Shown here: positions 17,623 to 54,859 of the stretch, piece after piece | Layout of the letters: each line of letters opens with the position of its first letter | How positions within the stretch are numbered: position 1 is the first letter of the stretch | DNA from: Dehalococcoidia bacterium | GTDB lineage: Bacteria; Chloroflexota; Dehalococcoidia; DSTF01; WHTK01 | Direction of reading: 5' to 3' | Assembly (NCBI GenBank): GCA_965219205.1 | Contig: CBDCMQ010000005.1 | Location: 68,338-132,337 of the forward strand | Length of the DNA: 64,000 bases | Notes under the pieces: model-generated | What the model was told of the DNA's origin: nothing | The model's input: the letters and a program-made list of their open reading frames with translations, nothing else | The model's database searches: none | Position numbers and translations under genes: made by a program

Positions 17623-17653
17623 AGCATTGTCGGTACCCAAAAGGATAAAGACA

Positions 17654-18572
17654 TTGAAATTCGGCGTTAACATCGTCAATTTTGGCCCCGGGGTGCGGCC
17701 AGATACGTTCCTGGAGTGGGCGCGACGCTCCGAGGATCTCGGCTACCACTCGGTGATGATCTTCGACCACGTGGCGGTGACACCCTCGGTCGCTCAGCGC
17801 TACCCCGAGCCGTTTTACGACCCATTCACTGTTTTAGCCTGGCTGGCCGCCGCCACGACCAGAATCAAGCTGGGTACGACGGTTTGCGTGCTACCCTGTT
17901 GTCATCCAGTCTTGTTGGCGCGGCAGGTTGCCGATATCGACCAACTAAGCGGCGGCAGGTTCATCTTCGGCGTTGGGGTTGGCAAGCCGGAGGACGAATT
18001 CGCCACGCTTGCCGTTCCCTTCGAGAAGCGTGGCGCTATGGCCAACGAGCAGCTCGACGTCATGGTCAATTTGTGGACCTGGGATGAGCCGGTCAGCTAT
18101 GACGGGCGACACGTGCAAATCAAGGACGTCTCACCGATAAAGCCGCTGCAAACACCACATCCACCGATATGGGTTGGTGGCGGCAGCGAGGGTACCCTGA
18201 AGCGCACGGCGAGGTTTGGTGACGCCTACCACCCCCCACGCGCGCTGGCCTGAAGCGCTCAGAGGCGAGACCATGCCCCGGATCCGGGAGATGGCGGCCG
18301 CACGAGGCCGGGCAGCGCCGGCGTTTTGTCCGCGAATCCGCCTCGACATCCGCGAGGCGCCAATCGATGGTAACCGAGCCTATGGCGAAGGCAGCATCGA
18401 CCAGATCAGAAGTGACCTGCAGCATTTCGAAGCTCTGGGTGCGCAAGAGATCTTGCTCGACTGGTCCACCGGCGACCTCGAGCGCACCAAGGATCACGAG
18501 CACGGCTGGCGCATGCTATCTCAAATGGCCGAGCAGGTCCTGGACCTGGCAGGGGAAGGTCTGCGCAGCTAA
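17654..18572 (+). CDS. LLM-class (luciferase-like, F420/flavin-dependent) oxidoreductase, interrupted by a 1-nt frameshift
   Basis: KFGVNIVNFGP...LGYHSVMIFDHV...RIKLGTTV is typical of the LLM family. The two ORFs (17627..18253 and 18216..18572) join if the C6 run at 18233..18238 is read as C5 (..FGDAYHPHARWPEALRGE..). A TTG start at 17654 follows aagga. Confidence 0.75.
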
Positions 18573-20716: not shown

Positions 20717-21886
20717 ATGGAAACATCGCCTGAAGACCACTATCTGAGACCGGCACAGATCTTTGATGGCGAAGCCGCCGATTTGCTGTCAGGCCAAGTG
20801 GTCCAGGTTCGAGAAAACAAGATCGAAGCCGTGGGACCGCCGGCGTCCTTCCCCGAGCTCCACGAATCGCAAGTGATCGAGCCGCTGGGGCTGACCTTGA
20901 TGCCCGGCTTGATCGAGGCTCATTCGCACGTCCTGCTCCATCCTTACACCGAGACGACCTGGAACGACCAGCTGGCACATGAAGCCCTGAGCCTGCGCAC
21001 CGCTCGCGCCACCAACCACCTGCGGGTCACGCTTCTGGCCGGGTTCACGACGATACGAGACCTCGGCACCGAAGGCGCCGGTTACGCCGATGTTGGCCTG
21101 CGTCAGGCGATAGAGCAGGGGATCATCCCCGGTCCGCGTATGCAGGTCGCCACCCGGGCAATTGTGACTACCGGCGCCTATGGCCCGAAAGGCTATGCGC
21201 CGGAATGGGACGTGCCGATCGGCGCGGAAGAGGCCAACGGCTTCGATTCTCTGATGCGGACCGTGCGCGACCAGATCGGCCGCGGCGCCGATTGGGTGAA
21301 ACTCTACGCCGACTACCGTTGGGGTCGCACGGTCTCAGCGCCGACTTTCACTCAAGAAGAACTAAACACCGCGGTCGAGGTTGTCTCAAGCGCCAACATT
21401 CCCGTTGCCGCGCATGCCAACACCACCGAAGGAATGCGACGGGCGGCGCGGGCCGGGGTCAACACCATCGAACACGGTGACGGCGGCACTGCCGAGGTAT
21501 TCGGCCTGATGAAGGAAAACGGCGTCGCACTTTGTGCGACCTTGTCCGTGGCGCCCGGCGAGCGGGCCGAACGTAAGCGGCGCATGTTTGAGACCGCGCT
21601 TGAAAGCGGCGTCTCGATCGCCAGCGGCAGCGATGTTGGCGTCTTCCCGCATGGCGACAACGTCCGGGAGCTAGAGGCGATGGTCGCCGCCGGCATGGCG
21701 GTCCTCGACACGGTTGTCGCGGCGACATCCGGCACGGCGCGTATCCTCAACCTCGAGGTCGGGCGGGTCAAATCCGGACATTTCGCCGATCTGCTCGCGG
21801 TTCAGGGCGATCCGACCAGTGATATTTCCGCTCTGCGCCGGGTCGAATTCGTCATGAAAGACGGAGCCGTCTACAAGCGTCCCTAA
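20717..21886 (+). CDS. metal-dependent amidohydrolase family protein
   Basis: HxH motif (GLIEAHSHV), later HA and EHG metal-ligand regions, and a C-terminal ADL.....DP motif. SD ggaggag. Confidence 0.85.
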   Translation: METSPEDHYLRPAQIFDGEAADLLSGQVVQVRENKIEAVGPPASFPELHESQVIEPLGLTLMPGLIEAHSHVLLHPYTETTWNDQLAHEALSLRTARATNHLRVTLLAGFTTIRDLGTEGAGYADVGLRQAIEQGIIPGPRMQVATRAIVTTGAYGPKGYAPEWDVPIGAEEANGFDSLMRTVRDQIGRGADWVKLYADYRWGRTVSAPTFTQEELNTAVEVVSSANIPVAAHANTTEGMRRAARAGVNTIEHGDGGTAEVFGLMKENGVALCATLSVAPGERAERKRRMFETALESGVSIASGSDVGVFPHGDNVRELEAMVAAGMAVLDTVVAATSGTARILNLEVGRVKSGHFADLLAVQGDPTSDISALRRVEFVMKDGAVYKRP

Positions 21887-21999
21887 CGGTTCCGCTGCGC
21901 TTCACCTCAACCTCACTGGCGGTTGCGCCTCTGAGTGATCGTTTTTCGGCTGTTGGTCTCAACACCCTTCACCGGTTGAGTTCAAGCCCCGTGTCAGCA

Positions 22000-22938
22000 C
22001 TAAGACTCAGCAGCCGCCTTTGACGGGTTTTTGAATAGTGCTCCGACGGCGATCTCGTTCTCGGCCGCAAGCTCAGCCGCCGGCTTGGCGCCGGCGTCGA
22101 GACGAAGTTTGCGGACCAGCAAGGCGCCGTCCGCCGCGCCGATAACCATGCCGTCGTCGTCGAGGGTGGAAACAACACCCGGCGCCGATTCTTGCCCAGG
22201 CAGCGGCCTAGCGTCCAGCATGCGTAGCTTTTGCTCACCCCATCTGGACCAGGCGCCGGGACTTGGGTCACAGCCCCGGACCAGGTTGTAGACTTCGGCC
22301 AGCGGCAGACGCCAGTCAATGCGGGCGGCCCGGTCCTCGCACGGCTTCTCATAGGTCGCCTCGGCTTCGTCCTGGACCGTTTTCGGCGCGGCGCCGCGGC
22401 GGACCAGCTCAACGGCCTCGGCCAATGCCTCAATGCCGACCGGATAGAGCTTGTCCGTGTACAACGAACCGGCGGTGTCGTCCGGGCCAATTTCGACATT
22501 TTTCTGCAACAGGACGGGCCCGGTGTCCATGCCCTGGTCGGGCCAGAAAATCGAAACACCGGTCAGCGTCTCACCTTGAATGATCGGCCAGTTGACCGAG
22601 CTGCGCCCACGATGCTTTGGCAGCAGAGAGGGGTGGTATTGGATTGTCCCATGCGTGGGAAAATTCAGGGTTGCATCAGCAATGAACTCCTGCACGAAGG
22701 CCATAACGCCTAACTCCGGCGCGGCCGCTTGCAGTGCCTCTTTGACCTCGGCTCCCTCTAGGCGATTGGGCTCGAAAACCGGAATCGAAGCGGCTTCCGC
22801 CTGGGACCAAAGCCGATCTGCGCGCCCGCTCAGCGATTGCTTGGGCGCCGCCACGGCAACGACCTCGTCGCCTTGTGCCTCAAGTTTCGTCAGGGCATCG
22901 ACGCCAAAGGCGCCTATGCCGTTTAGGATTATCCGCAT
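22000..22938 (-). CDS. formyltransferase-family protein resembling the N-terminal (folate-binding) domain of 10-formyl-THF dehydrogenase
   Basis: IQYHPSLLPKHRGRSSVNWPIIQGE..GVSIFWPDQGMDTGPVLLQK...ATYEKP....ARIDW. From memory this is closest to the FDH/ALDH1L1 N-domain (IIYHPSLLPRHRGASAINW...FSIFWADDGLDTGDLLLQK). It has the Fmt/ArnA-type SLLP..RG catalytic loop plus a C-terminal OB-like domain. Confidence 0.7.
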   Translation of the reverse strand: MRIILNGIGAFGVDALTKLEAQGDEVVAVAAPKQSLSGRADRLWSQAEAASIPVFEPNRLEGAEVKEALQAAAPELGVMAFVQEFIADATLNFPTHGTIQYHPSLLPKHRGRSSVNWPIIQGETLTGVSIFWPDQGMDTGPVLLQKNVEIGPDDTAGSLYTDKLYPVGIEALAEAVELVRRGAAPKTVQDEAEATYEKPCEDRAARIDWRLPLAEVYNLVRGCDPSPGAWSRWGEQKLRMLDARPLPGQESAPGVVSTLDDDGMVIGAADGALLVRKLRLDAGAKPAAELAAENEIAVGALFKNPSKAAAES

Positions 22939-22997
22939 GCCGCTCCAGCACCCCCGTCTAACCGCTAGCCGGTGTTACCCCTGATTCAGGCGATTTG

Positions 22998-24671
22998 CTA
23001 GCGCCGGGCCGCTACCGCTCCGGTGTTCCAACTAAACTCCTGCGGACGTCGAGCCGCTTTGTTATCGAGTACGACGTTGATTACTGCGGGGCCATTAGAC
23101 GCGAATGCCTTCTGAATCGCCGGGCCGAGGTCATCGGGGTCGTCAACGTAGATTCCCAGGCCGCCGAAGGCTTCGATTACCTTCTCGTAATGAGCGTCGG
23201 GGTAATAGGCGCTCACCGGAATCTCGTCGATACCAAGGAGCTCAGTCGGGCCACCGCCGATGCCGTTGTTGTTGAGAACGATGAAGACGATTGGCAGCTT
23301 GAGGCGGCAGGCCACTTCGACCTCCATGCCACTAAAGCCAAAGGCTGAGTCACCCTCGATATCGACTACACGCAGGCCAGGGTTGGCGATTTGGGCGGCA
23401 ATAGCCTGTGGCAGGCCGACGCCCATGGTCCCCCAAGTGCCCGCATCGATGCGGTGCCGCGGCAGGCTGTTGTTTATTACCTGCCGGCTGATGTCCATGG
23501 TACTGGCACCCTCGGCGACCAGCATGACGTCATCCGGCAGCAGGTCATCAATTTCTCTCAGGGCCCGGTAGTACCCCATTGGCTTTGCGTCATCCACCAG
23601 CATCGGTGCGGTGGCCGCGACGTTTTCTTCGATCTTCTTATCGATGCTGGTGCGCCAGGTGCTCTCCTCGGGGTACTGCCACGGGTGCATCTTGAGGTAG
23701 GCGTTAAGCTGGCCGGTTACCGCCTTGGCGTCACCAATCAGCGGCACCTCGGTCGGGATGTTGGTGCCGATTTCCTCTGGAGAGATGTCGAGCTGGATCA
23801 CTCGCACTCCCTCTTTGAAGCGCGGCGGCTCACCAAAGTGCATTATCCAGTTGAGACGCGCGCCGATCAGGAAAATCAGGTCAGTGTTCTGGAGCGCCAG
23901 GGAACGGGCGGCGCCGACCGACAAGGGGTGGTCGTCAGGAACGACACCACGGCCCATCGGCGAAGCAAGAAACGGCAGCTGGGTAGTCTCGATGAACTCC
24001 CGGACTTCATCCTCGGCTCGGCCGTAAGCGGCGCCCTTACCGACGATCACCAACGGCTGCTTGGCGCTCTGCAGGGCGCCCATCGCCGCCTCAACCGAGG
24101 CATCGTCAACCACCGGGCGAGGCGCGTCACGAACCGCCGGAGGGAACTTGATCAGTTCCTCATCCACCGTACCGGAAATCACGTCATCCATCAGGTCGAG
24201 GTATACCGGTCCAGGCCGGCCGCTGATCGAAGTTCGAACTGCCTGCTCGATGTAGAAAGGCAACCTGCCGGTCGACTCTGGCCGCATACCGTACTTGACG
24301 AAGGGCCGGGCCGCATCCAACTGAGGTGCTTCCTGGAACGCACCTTTCCCCATGAGATCGCTGCTGTTGGAGCCGCCAAGCAAGATCATCGGCCAGCAGT
24401 TGGACCAGGCGTTGCCAAGACCGGAGATCGCATTGGTCATGCCCGGGCCGGAGACACACAAGGCGACGCCGGGCCGCCCGGTTAGATATCCGATGGTACC
24501 GGCGGCATAAGCAGCGGACTGCTCATGCCGCATGCCAACGAAGGTAATGCCTTCCTTGCGCACCGCGTCCGCGATTGATCGCACTGGAATGCCGACGATA
24601 CCGAAGGCGTATTCGACGCCGTGGGACTTCAGGCTTCTAGCAATAATTGTTGCGCCATCTATTTCCGCCAC
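22998..24671 (-). CDS. ThDP-dependent 2-hydroxyacyl-CoA lyase / oxalyl-CoA decarboxylase family enzyme
   Basis: 557 aa. GARLNWIMHFGEPPRF, EGDSAFGFSGMEVEVACRLKLPIVFIVLNNNG (ThDP GDS..NN motif) and RHEQSAAYAA. GTG start after aggaggg. Confidence 0.85.
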   Translation of the reverse strand: MAEIDGATIIARSLKSHGVEYAFGIVGIPVRSIADAVRKEGITFVGMRHEQSAAYAAGTIGYLTGRPGVALCVSGPGMTNAISGLGNAWSNCWPMILLGGSNSSDLMGKGAFQEAPQLDAARPFVKYGMRPESTGRLPFYIEQAVRTSISGRPGPVYLDLMDDVISGTVDEELIKFPPAVRDAPRPVVDDASVEAAMGALQSAKQPLVIVGKGAAYGRAEDEVREFIETTQLPFLASPMGRGVVPDDHPLSVGAARSLALQNTDLIFLIGARLNWIMHFGEPPRFKEGVRVIQLDISPEEIGTNIPTEVPLIGDAKAVTGQLNAYLKMHPWQYPEESTWRTSIDKKIEENVAATAPMLVDDAKPMGYYRALREIDDLLPDDVMLVAEGASTMDISRQVINNSLPRHRIDAGTWGTMGVGLPQAIAAQIANPGLRVVDIEGDSAFGFSGMEVEVACRLKLPIVFIVLNNNGIGGGPTELLGIDEIPVSAYYPDAHYEKVIEAFGGLGIYVDDPDDLGPAIQKAFASNGPAVINVVLDNKAARRPQEFSWNTGAVAARR

Positions 24672-24698
24672 TTGATTCCCTCCTAAAGGTGCTTTGTA

Positions 24699-25922
24699 CT
24701 AACTGGTGCTTTCGACGGTTGGCCTGGGGCCTATGGCCCCTGCCTCGCGCAGTTCTGTCAGGTCGTCCCAGGTAAACCCGGCCTCCTCCAGAACCTCCTC
24801 GGTGTGCTGGCCGAACTCGGGGGCAAGGCCGCGGATATGACCCGGTGTTTTGCTAAAGATAACTGGCAAGCCAACCATCTTTACCGGCGACCCACCGTCT
24901 TCTGGTTCAACGTCAGTAATGTAGTCGTTCGCCAATACCTGCGGGTCTTTCGAAACGTCCTCGTAATCGTTTACGGGCGTCGCCAGCAGGTCGGCTTCCG
25001 CAAACCGGCGGATCCACTCTGCTGCCGTTTCGGTCGCAAAGATCGCGTCGAATTCCGCGAACAGCTGGCTCGAATTATCCAATCTTGCCGGGAGGGTTGC
25101 ATATTTCTCGTCGGTAGCCCATTCCGGCCTGCCGACCGCGGCAGCGATCCGGCTCCAATAGTGCGCCGCACTCATACCCAACGCGAACCATTTGCCGTCG
25201 CTGCCCTGGTAGGTGCTCCAGGTCGGGTTCGGTCCCGACCTGTGGACGCGACCGCGTTGGGTGCCACTCCAGAGATAGTCCGTTATGTTAAATGACTGAA
25301 CACAAAGTTGACCGCCCAGAAGGGAGGCGTCCACCTCTTGGCCTTCGCCGGTCCGCTCACGATGGCGCAGCGCCACAACCAGTCCAAAAGCCATCGTTAT
25401 GGCACCGATGTGATCGGCGATGGCCACGCCGGCCCCTTTTGGCCCGCCTTCCGGGTCACCGGTCTGGCTCATCAGGCCACCGCGGGCCTGACCCAGTATG
25501 TCCATGCTCGCACGGTCGGCATCCGGGCCTTCGGGTCCGTAGCCGGAACCGCGGCCGTAAATAAGGCGTGGGTTGATTTCACTCAGGGTCTTGTAATCGC
25601 AGCCTAGCCTGGCCAGCGCCGGCCGCCGATAGTTGCTAACAAAAATGTCGGCATCCTCAACCAGGCGATGGAAGGTTTTACGACCTGCCTCGTCCTTTAG
25701 GTCGATGCAGATGGCGCGCTTGCCGCGATTGAGCGTTTGGAAGTAAGCATTCATCGGCCCTTTGGTGCTGGTTACCATAGTGGAGCGACCAGGATCCGGC
25801 GTGTCCGGTCCCTCGATCTTGACCACGTCGGCACCGAGGTCGGCCAGCATAGCCGTCGAGTAGGTGCCTTGTTGGAAAATCGTCAGATCCAGGACTCGGA
25901 CGCCTTCAAGGGGAAGATCCAT
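24699..25922 (-). CDS. family III CoA-transferase (CaiB/BaiF/Frc-like)
   Basis: LEGVRVLDLT...MLADLGADVVKIE.P, NRGKR, and SGYG..GP...R...D. SD aggaga. Confidence 0.85.
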   Translation of the reverse strand: MDLPLEGVRVLDLTIFQQGTYSTAMLADLGADVVKIEGPDTPDPGRSTMVTSTKGPMNAYFQTLNRGKRAICIDLKDEAGRKTFHRLVEDADIFVSNYRRPALARLGCDYKTLSEINPRLIYGRGSGYGPEGPDADRASMDILGQARGGLMSQTGDPEGGPKGAGVAIADHIGAITMAFGLVVALRHRERTGEGQEVDASLLGGQLCVQSFNITDYLWSGTQRGRVHRSGPNPTWSTYQGSDGKWFALGMSAAHYWSRIAAAVGRPEWATDEKYATLPARLDNSSQLFAEFDAIFATETAAEWIRRFAEADLLATPVNDYEDVSKDPQVLANDYITDVEPEDGGSPVKMVGLPVIFSKTPGHIRGLAPEFGQHTEEVLEEAGFTWDDLTELREAGAIGPRPTVESTS

Positions 25923-25945
25923 TGTTATCTCCTGACACTGAACTA

Positions 25946-25971
25946 AATCAGGTGCAAAGTAACACCTGATT
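25946..25971 (-). promoter_or_regulatory. 9-bp stem hairpin in the 156-nt intra-operon gap
   Basis: aatcaggtg (25946..25954), an 8-nt loop, then cacctgatt (25963..25971). Lies between the crotonase stop and the CoA-transferase SD. Confidence 0.35.
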
Positions 25972-26078
25972 CGCCACCTGGTCCACCCTCAATTTTGGGA
26001 GCAGGAAAGCCAGCGTCACGCTCGGAACCGCATCGGCTGGTCCTGCCGGTTTCGCTACTCGCCGTGTCTCGCTTACCC

Positions 26079-26897
26079 CTAGACGCCCCTGAACTCGGGC
26101 TGCCGCTTCTCGGCGAAGGCTTTGCGGCCTTCGACATAGTCTCCGCTGGCAAAACAGTCAGCGATCAGGCGTTCGATATGCTTGAGATCACGGTCTTTCT
26201 CGTCTTTGACGGCCTCGTCGATTGCCGCGCTAACCGCTTTGACCGTTAGCGGAGCTGCTCGTGCGATTGTGCCGGACAGCTCTCGCACTCTCGGCTCGAG
26301 CTCATCTATTGATACGACCTCGTTGATCAAACCCATGCGCAACGCCGTCTGAGCATCGACCCGGTCACCGGTGATTAGGATCTGGCGCGCATTTGCCGGG
26401 CCAATCAGATCGACCACCGGCTTGACTTCGGAAAAGCCGTAGCCGAGGCCGAGACGAACCGCCGGGATACCGAACTGAGAGTCGTCCGATGCCACGCGCA
26501 GGTCGGCTTTGAGCGCCGTGAGCAGGCCGCCACCCACCGCGAAGCCGCGAATCATGGCGATTAGCGGTTTGTTGAGGGTTTTGTAGCTGGCGCTGGCGCG
26601 GGTGCCAACCTTGTTGTACTCGGCGATTTGCTCCGGTGTGGCCCGGTTGCTATCGAACTCCGAGATGTCGGCACCGGAGACGAATGACTTGTCGCCTGCA
26701 CCGGTCATCACGACGACCCGCACCTCGGGGTCGTCTCTGAAAGACTCGAGAATGACGGGGATCGCTTCGCGCATCTCTCTATTGATCGCGTTGCGGCGTT
26801 CCGGTTGGTTGAAAATCATCCAACCAACGCCGTCCTCTTTGTAGCCGATCATTTTCGTGGTTTCGACCTTGATCTCTTGCTTGGACATGGCTGTCAT
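26079..26897 (-). CDS. enoyl-CoA hydratase/isomerase (crotonase) family
   Basis: FNQPERRNAI...VVVMTGAGDKSFVSGADI...IAMIRGFAVGGG. The start overlaps the upstream stop (ATGA). Confidence 0.9.
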   Translation of the reverse strand: MTAMSKQEIKVETTKMIGYKEDGVGWMIFNQPERRNAINREMREAIPVILESFRDDPEVRVVVMTGAGDKSFVSGADISEFDSNRATPEQIAEYNKVGTRASASYKTLNKPLIAMIRGFAVGGGLLTALKADLRVASDDSQFGIPAVRLGLGYGFSEVKPVVDLIGPANARQILITGDRVDAQTALRMGLINEVVSIDELEPRVRELSGTIARAAPLTVKAVSAAIDEAVKDEKDRDLKHIERLIADCFASGDYVEGRKAFAEKRQPEFRGV

Positions 26898-28081
26898 ATG
26901 GCTCCTTGCTGGCGTAGTTCACTGATGCCGTCTGTGTCGTAGCCCAGCCACTCCAACACCTCGTCGGTGTGCTCTCCCATCTCGGGCGTGGGCCGCCGGA
27001 TTGCCGGCCGGCCACCGGCGTTGCTCAGACTGACCGCCTGGCCCACGACCTCCTGGTCGCCCAACCGCGGGTGTTTTACTGGACTCGCCATCCCCAGGTG
27101 GCGCACCTGGGCGTCGTCCATGGTCTGATCGATGCTATAGATCGGACCGCATGGCACACCGGCCTCGTTTAGGATATCAACCCATTCGTTGGTCGGCCGA
27201 GTCTTGGTGTGCTCCGATATGGCTTGGTTGATCTTTTGCCGGTTTTTCGAGCGGCTTGGGCCATCCTTGTAGTCAGGGTCTTCTAGCCATTCCGGCGCTC
27301 CAAGGGCCTTGGAAAGCCGCCGTACACCCTCGTCACTGCCGGAAGCGATGTTCATGTGACCGTCCGCGGTTGGAAACACGCCGGTGGGAATGCTGGTCGG
27401 ATGGTCGTTGCCGGCTTGGGGAGGCACCTCGTGGCCGATCAGCCAGCGCGCCGCCTGGAAGTCCAGCATGGCGATCTGCGCTTCCAGCAACGAGGTGTGC
27501 ACCCACTGGCCCTCTCCGGTTCGCTCTCGCTCGTGCAGTGCCACCAGCATGCCCATGGCCAAAAACACGCCCGCGGTGAGATCAGCAACCGGGATTCCGA
27601 CCCGCATCGGCCCCGCGCCCGGTTCGCCGGTCACAGACATCAGTCCGCCCATGCCCTGAGCGATCTGGTCGTAACCCGGCCTTTCGCTGTAAGGGCCGGT
27701 CTGACCAAAACCGGAAATGCTGCCGTAGATGATCCGTGGATTGACCTTGCGCAGGTCTTCGTAATCAATGCCAAGGCGCGATTTGACGTCGGGCCGATAG
27801 TTTTCCACGACCATGTCGGCCTTGGCCACGAGCTGCATGAAAATTTCATGGCCCTGCTCCGACTTCAGGTTGATCGTCATGTCGCGCTTGTTGCGGTGCA
27901 GGTTCTGAAAGTCGAATCCATCGCGCGCGCCGCCAAACGGGTCAGCACCCTCGGCGGCAGGCTCCTCGATTTTGATCACATCTGCGCCCCAGTCGGCCAG
28001 TTGCCGCACGGAGGTAGGCCCGCTGCGCACCCGCGTCAGGTCCAGCACCAGCAAATCGGAAAGGGGAAGGCCGTCTGGCAT
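26894..28081 (-). CDS. family III CoA-transferase (CaiB-like), paralog of 36065..37249
   Basis: LSDLLVLDLTRVRSGPTSVRQLADWGADVIKIEEP... SD aggag. Confidence 0.9.
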   Translation of the reverse strand: MPDGLPLSDLLVLDLTRVRSGPTSVRQLADWGADVIKIEEPAAEGADPFGGARDGFDFQNLHRNKRDMTINLKSEQGHEIFMQLVAKADMVVENYRPDVKSRLGIDYEDLRKVNPRIIYGSISGFGQTGPYSERPGYDQIAQGMGGLMSVTGEPGAGPMRVGIPVADLTAGVFLAMGMLVALHERERTGEGQWVHTSLLEAQIAMLDFQAARWLIGHEVPPQAGNDHPTSIPTGVFPTADGHMNIASGSDEGVRRLSKALGAPEWLEDPDYKDGPSRSKNRQKINQAISEHTKTRPTNEWVDILNEAGVPCGPIYSIDQTMDDAQVRHLGMASPVKHPRLGDQEVVGQAVSLSNAGGRPAIRRPTPEMGEHTDEVLEWLGYDTDGISELRQQGAI

Positions 28082-28228
28082 TTATAGCTCCTGAGCAGGT
28101 AATCGGTCAATTTTCGAGTGATCTAATGCTGCCAATTTGACAGGAGCGAGTCACATGGCGTCAAGAGCAATGTCCCGCACTGGCGGGCTGACCCGCGATT
28201 CCGTCGCTTACACGGGGCAGGCTCGCCT

Positions 28229-29329
28229 TTAGCCGGCGAAGATGTCCTCCGGCAAGAACGCTGACACGGTGAAATTTGGTATGTCGACGACGTTGGCCAT
28301 GCGCAGGTCGACCGCAACGCTGCAAATTATGTAGGCCTGTTCGCGGCTCCAGCCGCGCTCCTGCAACAGATCGATCATGTTTATCAGGGCGTTTCGGGTT
28401 GCCAGGTTGAGGTCGCCATCCTCCTGGGTACCGTCCTCGCGGATCGGCATACCGGTTGTCGCGATAACGTTGCGTGGCGCCGCCCACTCCGGTTGGAGAA
28501 AGTAGCCGGGGTGCGAAAAGCGAGGCTAGCGGATGTTGTGCCGCGCCGCCTCTCCCGGATGCAGGTGGAAACGCACGGCGGCGGTGGCGCCCATTTCTAT
28601 CGCGGTGATGCACGCTTCACCATCGCCCTGGGCGAAGTGGCCGTCGCCGGCGGAGTACAGCGCACCGGGTACCTGCACCGGCACAATCAGGCGTGAGCCC
28701 TTGGTTAGCTGTTTGGCGTCGATATTGCCGCAGGTTTCGCGCGGCGGCATCGTCCGCGCGGCTTCTTTGCCAAGGCTTTCCGGTACTGCGCTATCAAGGT
28801 CTGGCAGCAGTGCGCGGCCGCCTCTCCCAACCAGGTCGGCCTCGCGGCGGTTCCAGGTCGCCAGCATCTCGTGCGAGGGAGCAACGCCTGCCGTGCCCAT
28901 GAATGATCCGTCGGGGATGTGGACGCCCGGCAACTTTGGTGATGTCGCCCAACCGTCTTTGATATCCCACATGGACCATGTAGGCCTCAGGAAAGAGGTC
29001 CGCCAGGAAACCGCCGGTTGGGCCCAGGCGGGTGAACCCCCAGTTCTGTGGGGTGATCTCCAAGTACTCGATCTCTAGCAGATCTCCGGGCTGAGCTCCC
29101 TTTACGTAGACCGGACCGGTGAGTGGATGCACACTACCGAGGCCTTCGCCGACCTGGTCCGAGCCGTAGACGACGTTGCCATCGACCGCGTCACGCGTCT
29201 CGAGCACAACCTCTTCTCCGGGGTCTGACTCGACGATCGGTTCGATGTCAGGGTGCCAGCGGTTGTGACCTGTACCGGGTCGTCTTTTAGCCGCTTGGAG
29301 CGATCGATTGACACAGTTTTCATCTGCAA
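28229..29329 (-). pseudogene. acetamidase/formamidase (FmdA/AmdA) family gene with two frameshifts and an in-frame TAG
   Basis: Four fragments: MKTVSIDRSKRLKDDP | GTGHNRWHPDIEP...PEAYMVH | WDIKDGW...GDGEACITAIE...HNIR * PRFSHPGY...MPIREDG...FLPEDIFAG. The shifts are near 29275..29283 (C-run) and 28968..28980. The TAG is at 28526..28528. Confidence 0.8.
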
Positions 29330-29454
29330 ACCTCGGTTCTTTGCTCGCCGTTACGTGTCGAGAGCCTACGCCAAAATGGCCAAAAGCGCGACATTCTTGC
29401 TGCACGTAGATTGGCAGCGTCCGAGGAAGCTCAATCGAGTAAGATAGCTGCCAT

Positions 29455-30313
29455 CATGATGACAGACGCCCAGGTTCACCTCTTCGACGCTAACACTCCT
29501 TCGCGGCGGTGGCCTACTGATGGCCGGGCTGAGCCGGTAACCAAACTGCCAAGCTTCGGCGGTGAGCACATGCTCGGCGCCATGAAAGCCATCGGTGTAG
29601 ATCGAGCCGTCATCGTGCCGCCGGTCTGGGCTGGTGACCACAACCTGACGGCCCTGGAGGTCGCTAATGCTTACCCAGATCAATTCGCTGTGATGGGGAG
29701 AATCGATCCTTGGGCTGATGACACGCCTGCACGTTTGGAGAGTTGGCTGGACCAGCCTGGGATGCTCGGCATCCGCGTTAGCTCACGATGGGGCATTCAT
29801 CTAGGGCTATTCGAGAAGATGGCCAACGACCAGGATCTGGGCTGGTTCTGGGACGCCTGCGAGGGTCTGGAAATCCCCGTGATGTGCTTGACCCGTGACG
29901 GTATTGCCGGGCTGGAGCCGATTGTTTCGGCCCATCCGCGATTGCGAATCATCATCGACCACCTGGGCATGACCGAGGGTTCTACTTTGGACCTCGCGTT
30001 TCGCCATCTCGATACGTTGGTGGCGCTGGCCCGCTCTGAAAATGTCCATATGAAGGTCAGCATGGCGCCAAACCACTCGCACGAGCCTTACCCGTTCACG
30101 GACGTTCAGCCGATCTTGCGCCGGATTTACGATGCTTACGGTGCCCGCAGGATGTTGTGGGCTGCCGACATGACTCAGCTCTCAAAGAACACCTACGCCG
30201 AGTGTCTGCGTTTGTGGCAGGAGGGTTTGCCATTTCTCAGTGCATCGGACCGCGACCTGATACTCGGTGGGGCTGTCGCGGAGGTCCTGCCCTGGCCTGA
30301 GCCGTCCGTCTAG
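29455..30313 (+). CDS. amidohydrolase_2-type (TIM-barrel metal-dependent hydrolase/decarboxylase) protein
   Basis: MMTDAQVHLFD and IIIDHLGM motifs. The start is set at ATG 29455; the ORF begins at 29411. Confidence 0.75.
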
Positions 30314-34532: not shown

Positions 34533-35966
34533 ATGTTTGACACGGTGATCAAAAACGGCCAGGTAGTTACGCCACAGGGTGTGGGCAGTTGGGATATCGG
34601 CATCGTCGGCGAGCAGATCGCCGCGGTCGGCCTGCCGGATTCGCTGCCAACCGAGTCCTCAAGGGTGATTGACGCGGCGGGCAAGACCGTAGTCCCCGGT
34701 GGCATTGATCCGCACACCCATCTCGCGCATTTGATCATGAGTAATCCGGAGAAGCCCGAATACACCCTGGGCCCGGAGGATGACACGCGCGGCATGGTGT
34801 TTGGCGGCACGACAACCCACATAGACTTCGCTTACGTCCGACCCGGAGACGAGATTTCTGACGCGATCGAGAAGAGGCAAGCCCGTTGGGTCGGCAATTC
34901 TTACAATGATTACGCGTTCCATGTCGCGCTTTGCGGGCCGCTTGACCTTCAGGTTTTCGAGCAGATTCCAGACGCAATCCAGCAAGGATTTCCCAGCTTT
35001 AAGGTCTTTACGACCAATATCCTGCCGCCCGATCCGGACCGGCTTGGCAATCGCCTGGACTTCGGCCGCATCGGCTTCGCCATGGACAAGATCGTCGCCA
35101 ATGGCGGGTTGCTCGTGGTCCACGGTGAGGATGAGGACGTGGTCCAATTCAACTACGAGCAGTTCCGGGCTGAGGAACGTATGTCCGGCACCAACATGCA
35201 TTTGGTCCACAGCAAGCTATCGGAAATGCTCGCGTTTCGCCGCACCACGGCGCTGGCTCGCGCCAAAGACGCCGCGGTCTACTTCGTCCACACATCCGCC
35301 AAGGAAGGGGTGGACGCGATCGCCGAGGCGCGTTCTCTTGGTCAGCCGGTCTACGGCGAAACCTTGCACCAGTATTGTTGCTTCAACGCCGAGCACTATA
35401 AGACGCCGCGTGGGTTCTGCTCTCACACATATCCTTCGTTGAAGTTTCCCGAGGATCAGGATGCACTCTGGAACGGTCTGGTTCACAGCGGCCTGGCCAC
35501 GTTGGCAACCGACGAGTACCCGACCTCGCTGGCCGTCAAGATGAGGGGCAACCTGATCGACAACGTCACCGGCGGCAACGTCGGTGCCGAGGCGCGGATG
35601 GGCATCGCCTGGAGCGAAGGAGTTGTCAAGCGGGGTATGTCACTGCAGCGCTTCGCCGAAATCACCTCATCAAATGCCGCGCGCCTTTTCGGACTAGATC
35701 CAGCCAAGGGCACGATTGCGACTGGCGGTGATGCCGACTTGGTGTTTATCGACCCTGAAGTGAGCAAGACGCTTACGGTCGATGATTTTCACGTCACCGA
35801 TTACAGCCCATGGGAGGGCTGGCCGGTTTCAGGCTGGCCGGTACTGACCATGCTGCGCGGCCAGGTCGTCGTAGATGACGGAAAGTTGGTTGGCAAACCC
35901 GGTGACGGCCGTCTCGCCACCGCGCGCAAAATCGGGAGCCCCGTGCTGAATGGTCCGGTCCTCTAA
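34533..35966 (+). CDS. dihydropyrimidinase/D-hydantoinase-like cyclic amidohydrolase
   Basis: VIKNGQVV...VVPGGIDPHTHL, SFKVF (carboxylated-Lys region), and VHGED, FVHTS, ATDE motifs. Confidence 0.85.
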   Translation: MFDTVIKNGQVVTPQGVGSWDIGIVGEQIAAVGLPDSLPTESSRVIDAAGKTVVPGGIDPHTHLAHLIMSNPEKPEYTLGPEDDTRGMVFGGTTTHIDFAYVRPGDEISDAIEKRQARWVGNSYNDYAFHVALCGPLDLQVFEQIPDAIQQGFPSFKVFTTNILPPDPDRLGNRLDFGRIGFAMDKIVANGGLLVVHGEDEDVVQFNYEQFRAEERMSGTNMHLVHSKLSEMLAFRRTTALARAKDAAVYFVHTSAKEGVDAIAEARSLGQPVYGETLHQYCCFNAEHYKTPRGFCSHTYPSLKFPEDQDALWNGLVHSGLATLATDEYPTSLAVKMRGNLIDNVTGGNVGAEARMGIAWSEGVVKRGMSLQRFAEITSSNAARLFGLDPAKGTIATGGDADLVFIDPEVSKTLTVDDFHVTDYSPWEGWPVSGWPVLTMLRGQVVVDDGKLVGKPGDGRLATARKIGSPVLNGPVL

Positions 35967-36064: not shown

Positions 36065-37249
36065 ATGAATGACGGCCTGCCCCTTTCCGATTTGCTGGTA
36101 TTGGACCTGACCCGCGCCCGCGCCGGCCCCACGGCAGTTCGGCAACTGGCCGACTGGGGCGCCGACGTAATCAAGATCGAGGAGCCGGCCGATGCCGGCG
36201 CTGACATCATGGGCGGCGGACGCGACGGTGTCGATTTCCAGAACCTGCAGCGCAACAAGCGCAGCATGACGCTTAACCTCAAGTCGGAGCAGGGTCTGGA
36301 AGTTTTCATGCAGCTTGTAGCCAAGGCTGACGTGATCGTTGAGAACTACCGGCCGGACGTTAAGTCCCGGCTTGGTATCGATTTCGAGGCCGTGAGCAAG
36401 GTCAATCCGCGCATCGTTTACGGCAGCATCTCCGGCTTCGGTCAGACCGGTCCCTACAGCGGCCGGCCCGGCTACGACCAGATCGCCCAAGGGATGGGCG
36501 GACTGATGTCCGTGACGGGGCTGCCTGGCCAGGGTCCCGTGCGCGTCGGCGTGCCAATCGCCGACCTTTCATCAGGCATGTACCTGGCGCTGGGAATGCT
36601 GGTGGCGTTGCACGAGTGTGAGCGCACCGGCAAGGGCAAGTGGGTGCACACTTCCTTGCTGGAGGCGCAGATCGCCATGATGGACTTCCAGATGTCGCGC
36701 TGGCTGATTGGCCATGAAGTGCCGCCTCAGGCGGGTAACGACCATCCGACCAGCATCCCGACTGGTGTGTTCCCCACCACCGACGGCCACATGAACATCG
36801 CCGCCGCTGGCGACTCGATGTTCACGCGCCTTTGCAACGCCCTGGGGGCTCCGGAACTGCTCGAGAACCCCGACTACAAGGACTCGGAGAGCCGCTCCCA
36901 GAACCGGGTGGCGCTAAACGAAGCCTTGACGAAGTGCACTGAAATGCGATCGACCGCGGAATGGATCGAGGTTCTAAATCAGGCCGGAGTGCCAAGCGGG
37001 CCGATCTTTAGCGTCGACCAAACCGCGGCCGACCCCCAGGTGCAGCATCTGAGAATTGCCACTCCGGTAACCCACCCGCGTCTGGGCGAGCTGGAAGTGG
37101 TTGGTCAGCCGGTCAGTCTCGGCCCCGAAGGCCGGCCTAGCATCCGCCGTCATTCGCCCGATCTGGGCGAGCATACGGAGGAGGTGCTTGGGTGGTTGGG
37201 CTATAACGCGGCGGCAATCAGTGAGCTACACGAACAAGAGGCGATCTAG
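36065..37249 (+). CDS. family III CoA-transferase (CaiB-like), close paralog of 26894..28081
   Basis: MNDGLPLSDLLVLDLTRARAGPTAVRQLADWGADVIKIEEP.. By eye, roughly four of five residues are identical to the 26894..28081 product over the N-terminal two thirds. Confidence 0.9.
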   Translation: MNDGLPLSDLLVLDLTRARAGPTAVRQLADWGADVIKIEEPADAGADIMGGGRDGVDFQNLQRNKRSMTLNLKSEQGLEVFMQLVAKADVIVENYRPDVKSRLGIDFEAVSKVNPRIVYGSISGFGQTGPYSGRPGYDQIAQGMGGLMSVTGLPGQGPVRVGVPIADLSSGMYLALGMLVALHECERTGKGKWVHTSLLEAQIAMMDFQMSRWLIGHEVPPQAGNDHPTSIPTGVFPTTDGHMNIAAAGDSMFTRLCNALGAPELLENPDYKDSESRSQNRVALNEALTKCTEMRSTAEWIEVLNQAGVPSGPIFSVDQTAADPQVQHLRIATPVTHPRLGELEVVGQPVSLGPEGRPSIRRHSPDLGEHTEEVLGWLGYNAAAISELHEQEAI

Positions 37250-38205
37250 CCGCTCGCCGCGCGTTCGATCGGCTTTTCTCCGGTAAGGAAGCGCCGCGGC
37301 ACTTCCTCCATCATCAGCCGGATTTGTTCGTCGGAAACGCCGTCCTCGATAAGCGCGGGTAGGGCGACGCGTTTGAGAAAGGTGTAACGAACCGGGTCAT
37401 CTTCAGGTTCGTCCGCCGTATCCACCATGACGGACTTCGGCGGGTAGTCATGTCCGAGCATGATACGAGACGCCCAGCCGCGATCGATAAGGCGTTTGAC
37501 GGTCGCGTTGCGTTCTTGCCACTGCAATCCTCCCGGCCCGGCCGGGTAGCGATCCATCGAGAGGTAGCAGCCCTCCTTGAGCAAGTCCTCCAGGAAGGCG
37601 TCATTGGTTGTATCGGCGCTATGGCCGATGCAGACCAGGTGCATGGGTACACCCTCATCCAGCAAGACTTCGACCTGTCGGCGGCCCACCTCTTCCGGCG
37701 CCCATTGATGGGTGCTAATCGGAATGCCGGTTTCCTTGGCAACCCGAGCGGCGGCTCGGAGGGCCTTTTCGGCAATCTCGGTGACGCCTTCCGCGTCGCT
37801 TGCCATCTTTATGACACCGGGCTTGATGGGGGTTCCGTCAATACCATGTTCAATTTCGTGGAACATGAAGCGGGCGATGAAATCTGCATCTCTCTGCCAG
37901 AAGACGAAGGGAATTTGGCGCCAGAGGCCGGTCGCCGCGATGATATTGACGCCGGTAGCCTCGGAAATTTCCTTCATGACCAGGACCTCGCGACCGATGT
38001 CGATGGTCGAAAGTTCGATCATGCTGTCAACACCGCCGGCCTTCGCCGCCCTGAGCAGCTTGATGCCCTTCGCTACGCTCGCGTCTCGATCGAAGAGAAA
38101 GGGCAGATAACGCCAGGCAGCCATGATCATCACGTGTTCATGGCTGAGCGTGAAGCCGAGTTGCCCTGAATCGACAGGACCTGTAACGGTGTTTACGTTC
38201 GCCAT
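37246..38205 (-). CDS. phosphotriesterase-family (PTE/PLL lactonase-like) metal hydrolase
   Basis: GFTLSHEHV N-terminal motif, plus STHQ, IGHSAD and LGHDYP. 319 aa. Confidence 0.8.
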   Translation of the reverse strand: MANVNTVTGPVDSGQLGFTLSHEHVMIMAAWRYLPFLFDRDASVAKGIKLLRAAKAGGVDSMIELSTIDIGREVLVMKEISEATGVNIIAATGLWRQIPFVFWQRDADFIARFMFHEIEHGIDGTPIKPGVIKMASDAEGVTEIAEKALRAAARVAKETGIPISTHQWAPEEVGRRQVEVLLDEGVPMHLVCIGHSADTTNDAFLEDLLKEGCYLSMDRYPAGPGGLQWQERNATVKRLIDRGWASRIMLGHDYPPKSVMVDTADEPEDDPVRYTFLKRVALPALIEDGVSDEQIRLMMEEVPRRFLTGEKPIERAASG

Positions 38206-54782: not shown

Positions 54783-54859
54783 CGGGGCGTAGCGCAGTCC
54801 GGTAGCGCACTTGACTGGGGGTCAAGAGGTCGCTGGTTCGAATCCAGTCGCCCCGACCA
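54783..54859 (+). tRNA. tRNA-Pro (anticodon GGG), CCA encoded
   Basis: Manual cloverleaf: acceptor CGGGGCG/CGCCCCG, D-stem GCGC/GCGC, anticodon stem CTTGA/TCAAG with loop CTGGGGG, T-arm GCTGG-TTCGAAT-CCAGT, then A-CCA. Confidence 0.9.

Follow-up and report, generated by a model that had tools for sequence, protein, structure and literature searches.

A stand-alone formyltransferase encoded beside a 2-hydroxyacyl-CoA lyase and a CoA-transferase may connect formyl-CoA with the folate pool

A 64,000-nt stretch of DNA from a Dehalococcoidia bacterium (contig CBDCMQ010000005.1, positions 68,338–132,337; hereafter the window) carries a five-gene minus-strand operon that ends in a free-standing formyltransferase (FT) and also encodes a thiamine diphosphate (ThDP) enzyme, two family III CoA-transferases (CoAT1 and CoAT2) and a crotonase-fold protein (Table 1). 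We propose, at a probability of roughly 60%, that FT exchanges formyl groups between CoA and tetrahydrofolate (THF). The gene anatomy, the family placement, the conservation of the active site and the linkage are observations; the CoA acceptor, the direction of transfer, the substrate and the molecule from which CoAT2 takes its CoA are our inferences.

The sequence of FT resembled the N-domain of ALDH1L1/FDH more than methionyl-tRNA formyltransferase (Fmt), in agreement with a preliminary description of this DNA. When an 18-member profile of the family was searched against the Protein Data Bank (PDB), the FDH hydrolase domain scored 299.7 bits, compared with 216 for Fmt, 154 for ArnA and 81 for HypX. 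FT itself reached 135.9 bits with the fmt equivalog model TIGR00460 (cutoff, 201.5) and attained no other curated NCBIfam model; five further members scored 136–183 bits with TIGR00460, all below the cutoff, and no NCBIfam model captured the family among the six members tested. In a Foldseek search with the AlphaFold2 model of FT (pLDDT 92.8), the best five matches were all FDH hydrolase domains with 32–39% identity, headed by 1s3i (39%; TM-score 0.83). On fold alone, FDH-N, Fmt and ArnA cannot be told apart, since all gave TM-scores of 0.83–0.87, and only the sequence sets FT with FDH-N. FT has the same two-subdomain fold as its best matches (1s3i, 2bw0 and 4qpd), with the catalytic triad in YHPSLLP...DTGP. 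Residues H102, S104 and D138 of FT, invariant in the family, correspond to the FDH triad His106/Ser108/Asp142 (PMC6802093). Position 100, in the motif G-T-I-Q100-Y-H102-P-S, is Gln in 18 of 18 sequences from the homology search, whereas the aligned zebrafish FDH has Ile. We take this Gln to replace the Asn that amine formyltransferases have in their N-x-H motif, with the numbering of the Fmt motif presumed.

The domain content of FT bears on the acceptor. FDH-N is fused to ACP-like and aldehyde dehydrogenase domains, whereas FT is a free-standing 312-aa bacterial protein consisting of Formyl_trans_N and Formyl_trans_C only, and no carrier-protein gene adjoined FT in the operon or in the loci of its close relatives. 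FDH-N passes the formyl group to the thiol of 4′-phosphopantetheine (PMC6802093), the same chemical group as the CoA thiol; as FT is not fused to a carrier, its acceptor must be a free molecule, which we infer to be CoA. According to the preliminary description, no step passing a formyl group between THF and CoA was known to have been described, a statement that has to be withdrawn. LctF of Streptomyces lactacystinicus, a stand-alone Fmt-like enzyme, converts 10-formyl-THF and CoA into formyl-CoA in vitro (PMC11730586), and the same transfer was proposed for the HypX N-domain from crystal structures, without direct experimental proof (PMC6802093). LctF, HypX-N and FT all have the formyltransferase fold, and LctF, compared here by its description, is stand-alone like FT. 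LctF serves a polyketide synthase/nonribosomal peptide synthetase starter unit and HypX the synthesis of the hydrogenase CO ligand, whereas FT is set in catabolic or central C1 metabolism, among the genes discussed below, and may run in the reverse direction.

The ThDP enzyme belongs by sequence to the HACL/S clade (2-hydroxyacyl-CoA lyases/synthases) and, as suspected earlier, is nearer to 2-hydroxyacyl-CoA lyase (HACL) than to oxalyl-CoA decarboxylase (Oxc). In a phmmer search of the PDB it matched DhcHACL/S (8vzj) at 777 bits and TbHACL/S (8vzd) at 761 bits, with 62% and 60% identity, respectively, followed by ApbHACL/S (8vza) and RuHACL (6xn8) at 641–652 bits (6xn8, 641), Oxc at 437 (2q27) and 392 bits (2c31), actinobacterial 2-hydroxyisobutyryl-CoA lyase at 211 bits and acetolactate synthase at 202 bits or less. 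The prokaryotic HACL/S structures have active-site motifs in common with the window enzyme, which contains GDSAF...NNNG and shares GAFQEAPQ, NNNGIGGGP and a C-terminal KAARRPQEFSW with TbHACL/S. A genuine Oxc (locus L029) differs at all three of the latter sites (GDYEEMDQ, NNDGIYRGT and AAGSESGRIG), where we take Tyr-Glu (DYEE), Tyr (GIYRG) and Ser/Arg (SESGR) to be the Oxc signature residues. By these three positions and by the Oxc equivalog TIGR03254 (527.6 bits; cutoff, 739.4) the enzyme is not an oxalyl-CoA decarboxylase; the broad model NF006721 was narrowly passed (561.6 against 557). The enzyme is therefore placed, by homology, as a putative 2-hydroxyacyl-CoA lyase/synthase, with 2-hydroxyacyl-CoA ⇌ aldehyde + formyl-CoA as the expected reaction. 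DhcHACL/S and TbHACL/S have been characterized as HACL/S variants (PMC11271303), in a paper in which we found no statement on the native physiological role of these bacterial enzymes. The window enzyme represents a subclade of 557-aa proteins, briefly extended at the C terminus, that is consistently linked to CoAT2 and FT. A second subclade of 550/551 aa, 64–71% identical to the window enzyme, holds the crystallized enzymes; TbHACL/S also has 550 aa.

The linkage of these genes was kept in relatives. An identical operon was found on a 289-kb metagenomic contig, and in a locus whose FT is 86% identical (L083) the same five genes are collinear, with 85.5% nucleotide identity. At greater distance the gene order is CoAT-HACL-FT (L085; 68% FT identity), ECH-FT facing HACL-CoAT-SDR (L086; 64%) or SGL-FT facing HACL-CoAT-2-hydroxyacid dehydrogenase (L093; 61%). 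The transferases of these three loci, all adjoining HACL, are orthologues of CoAT2 (66–79% identity) and not of CoAT1, which is confined to the window lineage and the 86% relative, and their lyases are 75–82% identical to the window enzyme. Of the five-gene unit first described, CoAT2, HACL and FT thus make up the only core conserved at this distance, and CoAT1 and the crotonase-fold protein are lineage-specific additions. That the trio survives reshuffling of order and strand indicates functional coupling, and its recurrence, with the collinearity in L083, shows that the arrangement did not arise by chance.

In the wider family, one genome per species was scanned and an FT relative was found in at least 596 genomes; 80 loci were kept, and their neighbouring genes were called with a GC3-weighted open reading frame (ORF) caller, clustered and annotated. 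By raw neighbour counts, which are inflated by a large alphaproteobacterial clade, an Frc-type transferase stands beside FT in 29 of the 80 loci, formate–THF ligase (FTHFS, Fhs) in 26, an Oxc-type ThDP enzyme in 21 and a third ThDP clade (HICL-like) in 9. The order that recurs is transporter (TctABC or MFS)–GntR–ThDP enzyme–CoA-transferase–FT–formate–THF ligase, often ending in subunits of an NAD-formate dehydrogenase, and the linkage of FT to formyl-CoA genes is dispersed over many separate branches of the neighbour-joining tree of the family. The adjoining Frc was genuine in 4 of 4 cases tested (600–720 bits with TIGR03253; cutoff, 504), and the ThDP enzyme of L029, the one Oxc-type locus tested, is a genuine Oxc (1,024 bits with TIGR03254 against 739). 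The third clade is not Oxc (214–230 bits against 739), and its closest structure is the actinobacterial 2-hydroxyisobutyryl-CoA lyase (259 bits). It stands where Oxc would otherwise be, with GntR on one side and a genuine Frc on the other (L035:6775–8520, L007:6638–8407, L012:6923–8683 and six more loci), and could be an analogue of oxalyl-CoA decarboxylase that has gone unrecognized, or else a lyase acting on a different 2-hydroxy or 2-oxo acid. Of the three ThDP partner clades of FT, one forms formyl-CoA, one has characterized relatives that do so and one has a closest solved relative that does. As the three contexts share formyl-CoA and no other metabolite, and Fhs produces 10-formyl-THF, formyl transfer between THF and CoA is implied.

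A plasmid of a cultured strain, the single record returned by a plasmid search, shows the same arrangement. On pLA6_002 of Paracoccaceae strain La 6 (L094; CP031587.1, 65036–83872) the genes ydfH-oxc-frc_5-fmt_2-fhs_2 lie among TctBA, a ketopantoate-reductase-like gene, glyA2, sucCD and ppc, and the suffix in fmt_2 (QEW23307.1) implies another fmt in the La 6 genome. With this plasmid and the neighbourhoods counted above, the link between formyl-CoA and the folate pool that the preliminary description had put forward gained strong backing. The gene set looks like a plasmid-borne island for oxalate assimilation and a serine cycle, in which the ketopantoate-reductase-like gene is a candidate oxalyl-CoA reductase. 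Elsewhere in the family, a pterin-4a-carbinolamine dehydratase gene (PF01329; for example, L005:5249–5575) adjoins FT in seven loci lacking formyl-CoA genes (L004, L005, L009, L019, L031, L033 and L044); this neighbour is pterin-related and is left unexplained by the formyl-CoA model.

Both transferases of the operon matched Pfam CoA_transf_3 (398.6 bits for CoAT1 and 391 for CoAT2). CoAT1 fell below every NCBIfam equivalog cutoff, and with the Frc model TIGR03253 (cutoff, 504.2) CoAT1 scored 248.2 and CoAT2 227.3 bits, so the initial label of an Frc-type transferase applies to neither. CoAT2, the conserved partner of the lyase, would load a 2-hydroxy acid onto CoA and, by analogy with Frc, possibly takes the CoA from formyl-CoA. 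A paralogue of CoAT1, 73% identical, lies at 36065–37249 (+), which suggests a duplicated acid-activation step; it is flanked by an Amidohydro_1 gene (34533–35966) and a phosphotriesterase-family gene (37246–38205, −).

The crotonase-fold protein (ECH_1, 182 bits; NF004781, 324.6 bits against a cutoff of 291) has genuine hydratases as its nearest solved relatives (5zai, 3-hydroxypropionyl-CoA dehydratase, 163 bits). In the alignment to 5zai both hydratase glutamates are replaced, by Leu and Ala (GGGLE to GGGLL and GLPEI to GIPAV), and the same replacements occur in a 96%-identical orthologue; the protein is, to judge from these residues, probably not a hydratase. Crotonase hydration moreover gives 3-hydroxyacyl-CoA, not the 2-hydroxyacyl-CoA required by HACL. 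The hydration step of the alpha-oxidation-like route suggested at the outset is thereby left without support. Glutamate-less crotonase-fold proteins include decarboxylases of malonyl-type thioesters, and we speculate that CoAT1 and the crotonase-fold protein, both specific to the window lineage, have the accessory task of preparing the substrate, perhaps by decarboxylating a malonyl-type 2-hydroxy-dicarboxyl-CoA to 2-hydroxyacyl-CoA or by epimerization. FT-adjoining crotonase-fold genes at L086:1–672 and L060:6110–6955, 27–30% identical to that of the window, also lack both glutamates, and one farther from FT (L069:15243–16091) keeps both. The adjacency of FT to glutamate-less crotonase-fold genes recalls the HypX fusion, to which no sequence evidence ties them. 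A split HypX made of FT and the crotonase-fold protein was rejected: HypX was not among the 96 matches of the latter at E ≤ 1e-20, and the crotonase gene lies outside the conserved trio.

We propose the following scheme for the conserved core. CoAT2 would attach a 2-hydroxy acid to CoA, the HACL/S-clade enzyme would split the 2-hydroxyacyl-CoA into formyl-CoA and an aldehyde one carbon shorter, and FT, by means of His102, Ser104 and Asp138, would catalyse a reversible formyl transfer linking the thiol of CoA with N10 of THF, coupling a small and labile formyl-CoA pool to the 10-formyl-THF pool. If formyl-CoA is the donor for CoAT2, transferase and lyase would form a self-regenerating cycle that turns a 2-hydroxy acid into an aldehyde and formate; this cycle would need catalytic amounts of formyl-CoA, with 10-formyl-THF as the source from which FT would make it. 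The Frc/Oxc oxalate system follows the same logic of a family III CoA-transferase and a ThDP enzyme that regenerates formyl-CoA, and FT relatives sit within genuine oxc-frc clusters, whereas neither curated cutoffs nor signature residues mark the window enzymes as Frc or Oxc, and the leaving group would be an aldehyde instead of the CO2 of Oxc. In the oxalate clusters Fhs and FT would act as a pair, as a one-ATP formyl-CoA synthetase, and formyl-CoA would be refilled when the thioester is lost, for example when oxalyl-CoA is reduced to glyoxylate for assimilation. Such anaplerotic priming, which we hold to be marginally likelier than the reverse flow, fits the tight adjacency of Fhs and FT as well as the direction of LctF (shown) and of HypX (proposed). 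A synthetic run of the same enzymes seems unlikely. Here formate or another C1 unit of the folate pool would enter 10-formyl-THF, from which FT would make formyl-CoA, HACL/S would condense this with an aldehyde to 2-hydroxyacyl-CoA and CoAT2 would free the 2-hydroxy acid, with Fhs and FT as a hitherto unrecognized one-ATP (ADP-forming) route from formate to formyl-CoA that charges CoA-cycling pathways; this would be the natural counterpart of engineered formyl-CoA elongation.

Besides the clade that inflates the neighbour counts, several observations weigh against the transfer of formyl between CoA and THF as the function of FT. In 43 of the 80 loci no ThDP, CoA-transferase or Fhs gene lay within ~8–10 kb of FT, so the family may hold other or additional roles, and no fhs was found within the 64-kb window. 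FT was absent nearby in 4 of 4 loci examined of the 550/551-aa HACL/S subclade, which refutes the idea that HACL is always accompanied by FT and means that HACL can do without an adjoining one. NCBIfam does not class CoAT2 as Frc, so that formyl-CoA is assigned to it only by analogy. The invariance of the active-site residues in the locus set (Gln100 in 97 of 97 sequences) is inflated, partly by construction, because the retrieval patterns included the active-site motif. Last, FT matches HypX-N, one of its two precedents, weakly (81 bits; 21% identity).

Among the alternatives, the one with the best, although clearly lower, prospects is that FT works solely in the salvage or energy-conserving direction, making 10-formyl-THF from the formyl-CoA released by the lyase or Oxc, while another CoA donor activates the acid; the product would go to purine and fMet synthesis, to the serine cycle, or to ATP and formate through a reversed formate–THF ligase. 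It draws on the same gene linkage and is one of the two directions for which the preliminary description left room. Transfer from the thioester to N10 is thermodynamically at least as easy, being probably slightly exergonic by approximate hydrolysis energies. The La 6 cluster lies among serine-cycle-like genes (glyA2, ppc and sucCD), where 10-formyl-THF is an intermediate of assimilation. Against this, Frc/Oxc clusters need formyl-CoA as CoA donor for oxalate, so that draining it would cost ATP elsewhere for no net gain; both precedents, LctF by experiment and HypX by proposal, run from 10-formyl-THF towards CoA; and no fhs adjoins the window operon.

Hydrolysis is a far weaker candidate. The isolated FDH N-domain deformylates 10-formyl-THF in vitro, the closest solved relatives of FT are deposited as the FDH 'hydrolase domain' and formate dehydrogenase subunits lie downstream in several clusters, all of which would suit a PurU-like 10-formyl-THF deformylase or a formyl-CoA thioesterase that clears a reactive by-product and frees formate. 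A hydrolase beside Fhs would, however, run an ATP-wasting futile cycle, and beside Frc it would destroy the CoA donor; native FDH sends the formyl group to the pantetheine thiol, not to water (PMC6802093). Least probable of all, by a hair, is an N-formyltransferase for another acceptor, for example Met-tRNAfMet, an amino sugar or some amine or amide intermediate, with the adjacency of FT to formyl-CoA enzymes having nothing to do with CoA. Annotation pipelines do name members of the family 'methionyl-tRNA formyltransferase', the fold is common to Fmt and ArnA, the window region is rich in amidohydrolases and an amidase, and the loci that lack a formyl-CoA context would find a place under this explanation. 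For Met-tRNA in particular the sequences speak against the assignment: all six members tested missed the fmt cutoff, and the Asn of the N-x-H...Asp motif has become an invariant Gln, though its His and Asp are there. The La 6 copy, fmt_2, implies a separate fmt, no def gene adjoins the operon, and the recurrent linkage to three formyl-CoA-forming ThDP clades would be left unexplained.

The anatomy of the operon is given in Table 1. The five minus-strand genes, their spacing, the overlap and the hairpin of the preliminary description all match the ORF coordinates and the sequence, every peptide motif that it quoted was found in the translations, and Pfam bears out its domain content (in gene order, CoA_transf_3, ECH_1, CoA_transf_3, TPP_enzyme_N/M/C and Formyl_trans_N and C). 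By ORF coordinates, 156, 27 and 59 nt separate the genes that do not overlap; CoAT1 and the crotonase gene share an ATGA of 4 nt, read off the sequence at 26897..26894. In L083 the crotonase start was called at the second ATG, by which the overlap would become a 5-nt gap.

Table 1 Features of the operon and of the gene directly upstream
Feature	Coordinates	Strand	Remarks
CoAT1, family III CoA-transferase	26894..28081	-	395 aa; first gene of the operon
Crotonase-fold protein	26079..26897	-	272 aa; translationally coupled to CoAT1
Perfect 9-bp inverted repeat	25946..25971	.	In the 156-nt gap before CoAT2
CoAT2, family III CoA-transferase	24699..25922	-	407 aa; conserved partner of the lyase
ThDP enzyme, HACL/S clade	22998..24671	-	557 aa; GTG start
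Formyltransferase FT, stand-alone, ALDH1L1/FDH N-domain-like	22000..22938	-	312 aa
FmdA_AmdA (formamidase/acetamidase-family) gene, frameshifted	28238..29323	-	Directly upstream of the operon, co-directional

The inverted repeat (arms at 25946–25954 and 25963–25971, with an 8-nt loop) lies ~23 nt upstream of the CoAT2 start and is the only 9-bp inverted repeat of its kind in the window, where 0.02 would be expected by chance. It has no T tract and so is not a classical intrinsic terminator. In L083 two positions of each arm have changed in a compensating manner (A-T to G-C, T-A to G-C), indicating that the pairing or the palindrome is under selection; the element may act as a stem-loop in RNA or as an operator of palindromic form. 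Apart from one 12-nt indel, the gap is 92% identical between the two loci (window 25900–26100 and L083:6830–7040), compared with the operon average of 85.5%, which points to a promoter inside the operon, or to some regulatory element, upstream of CoAT2. A sigma-70 scan around the operon gave no promoter and no convincing terminator. Rfam gave no riboswitch, the THF and ZTP classes that were sought included, at the gathering score over the whole window or at E ≤ 1 over 21800–29500; its sole match was a tRNA at 54783–54856.

Upstream of the operon, the FmdA_AmdA gene is broken. A tblastn search with the L083 protein, which is intact (364 aa) and encoded upstream of the same five genes, aligned in two parts, in frames −3 and −1, whose junction lies near 28970, and the fragment at 28526–28972 has a Pfam match. 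The gene was possibly once the first of the operon, and its frameshift could mark a pseudogene or an assembly indel. A luciferase-like monooxygenase gene at 17627–18572 (+) is likewise split into two ORFs (199 + 99 aa in L001), compared with a single 305-aa gene in L083; with this second split gene inside 12 kb, long-read indel errors in the assembly become possible. No def gene and no second formyltransferase were found within the window, and the region contains, besides its amidohydrolases and amidase, Rieske oxygenases.

Finally, a search of the literature library returned no paper tying the FT family to oxalate or HACL clusters and only LctF and HypX as related precedent. The chemistry is already known from LctF and the HypX proposal and is not categorically new; the novelty lies in a separate lineage of free-standing FDH-N-like proteins, in its physiological setting and, possibly, in a reversed direction of transfer. 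Formyl-CoA is usually regarded as a dead-end or catalytic intermediate of oxalate degradation and alpha-oxidation that is joined to C1 metabolism through free formate. If FT does exchange formyl groups between CoA and THF, this would explain how Frc/Oxc and CoA-transferase/HACL cycles start up and are supplied with formyl-CoA, and would give a native role to the bacterial HACL/S enzymes, so far mainly synthetic-biology parts. Fhs and FT would also offer engineered C1-elongation pathways a one-ATP route from formate, cheaper than AMP-forming synthetases, and a systematic mis-annotation would be corrected for the hundreds of FT-family genes now labelled methionyl-tRNA formyltransferase.

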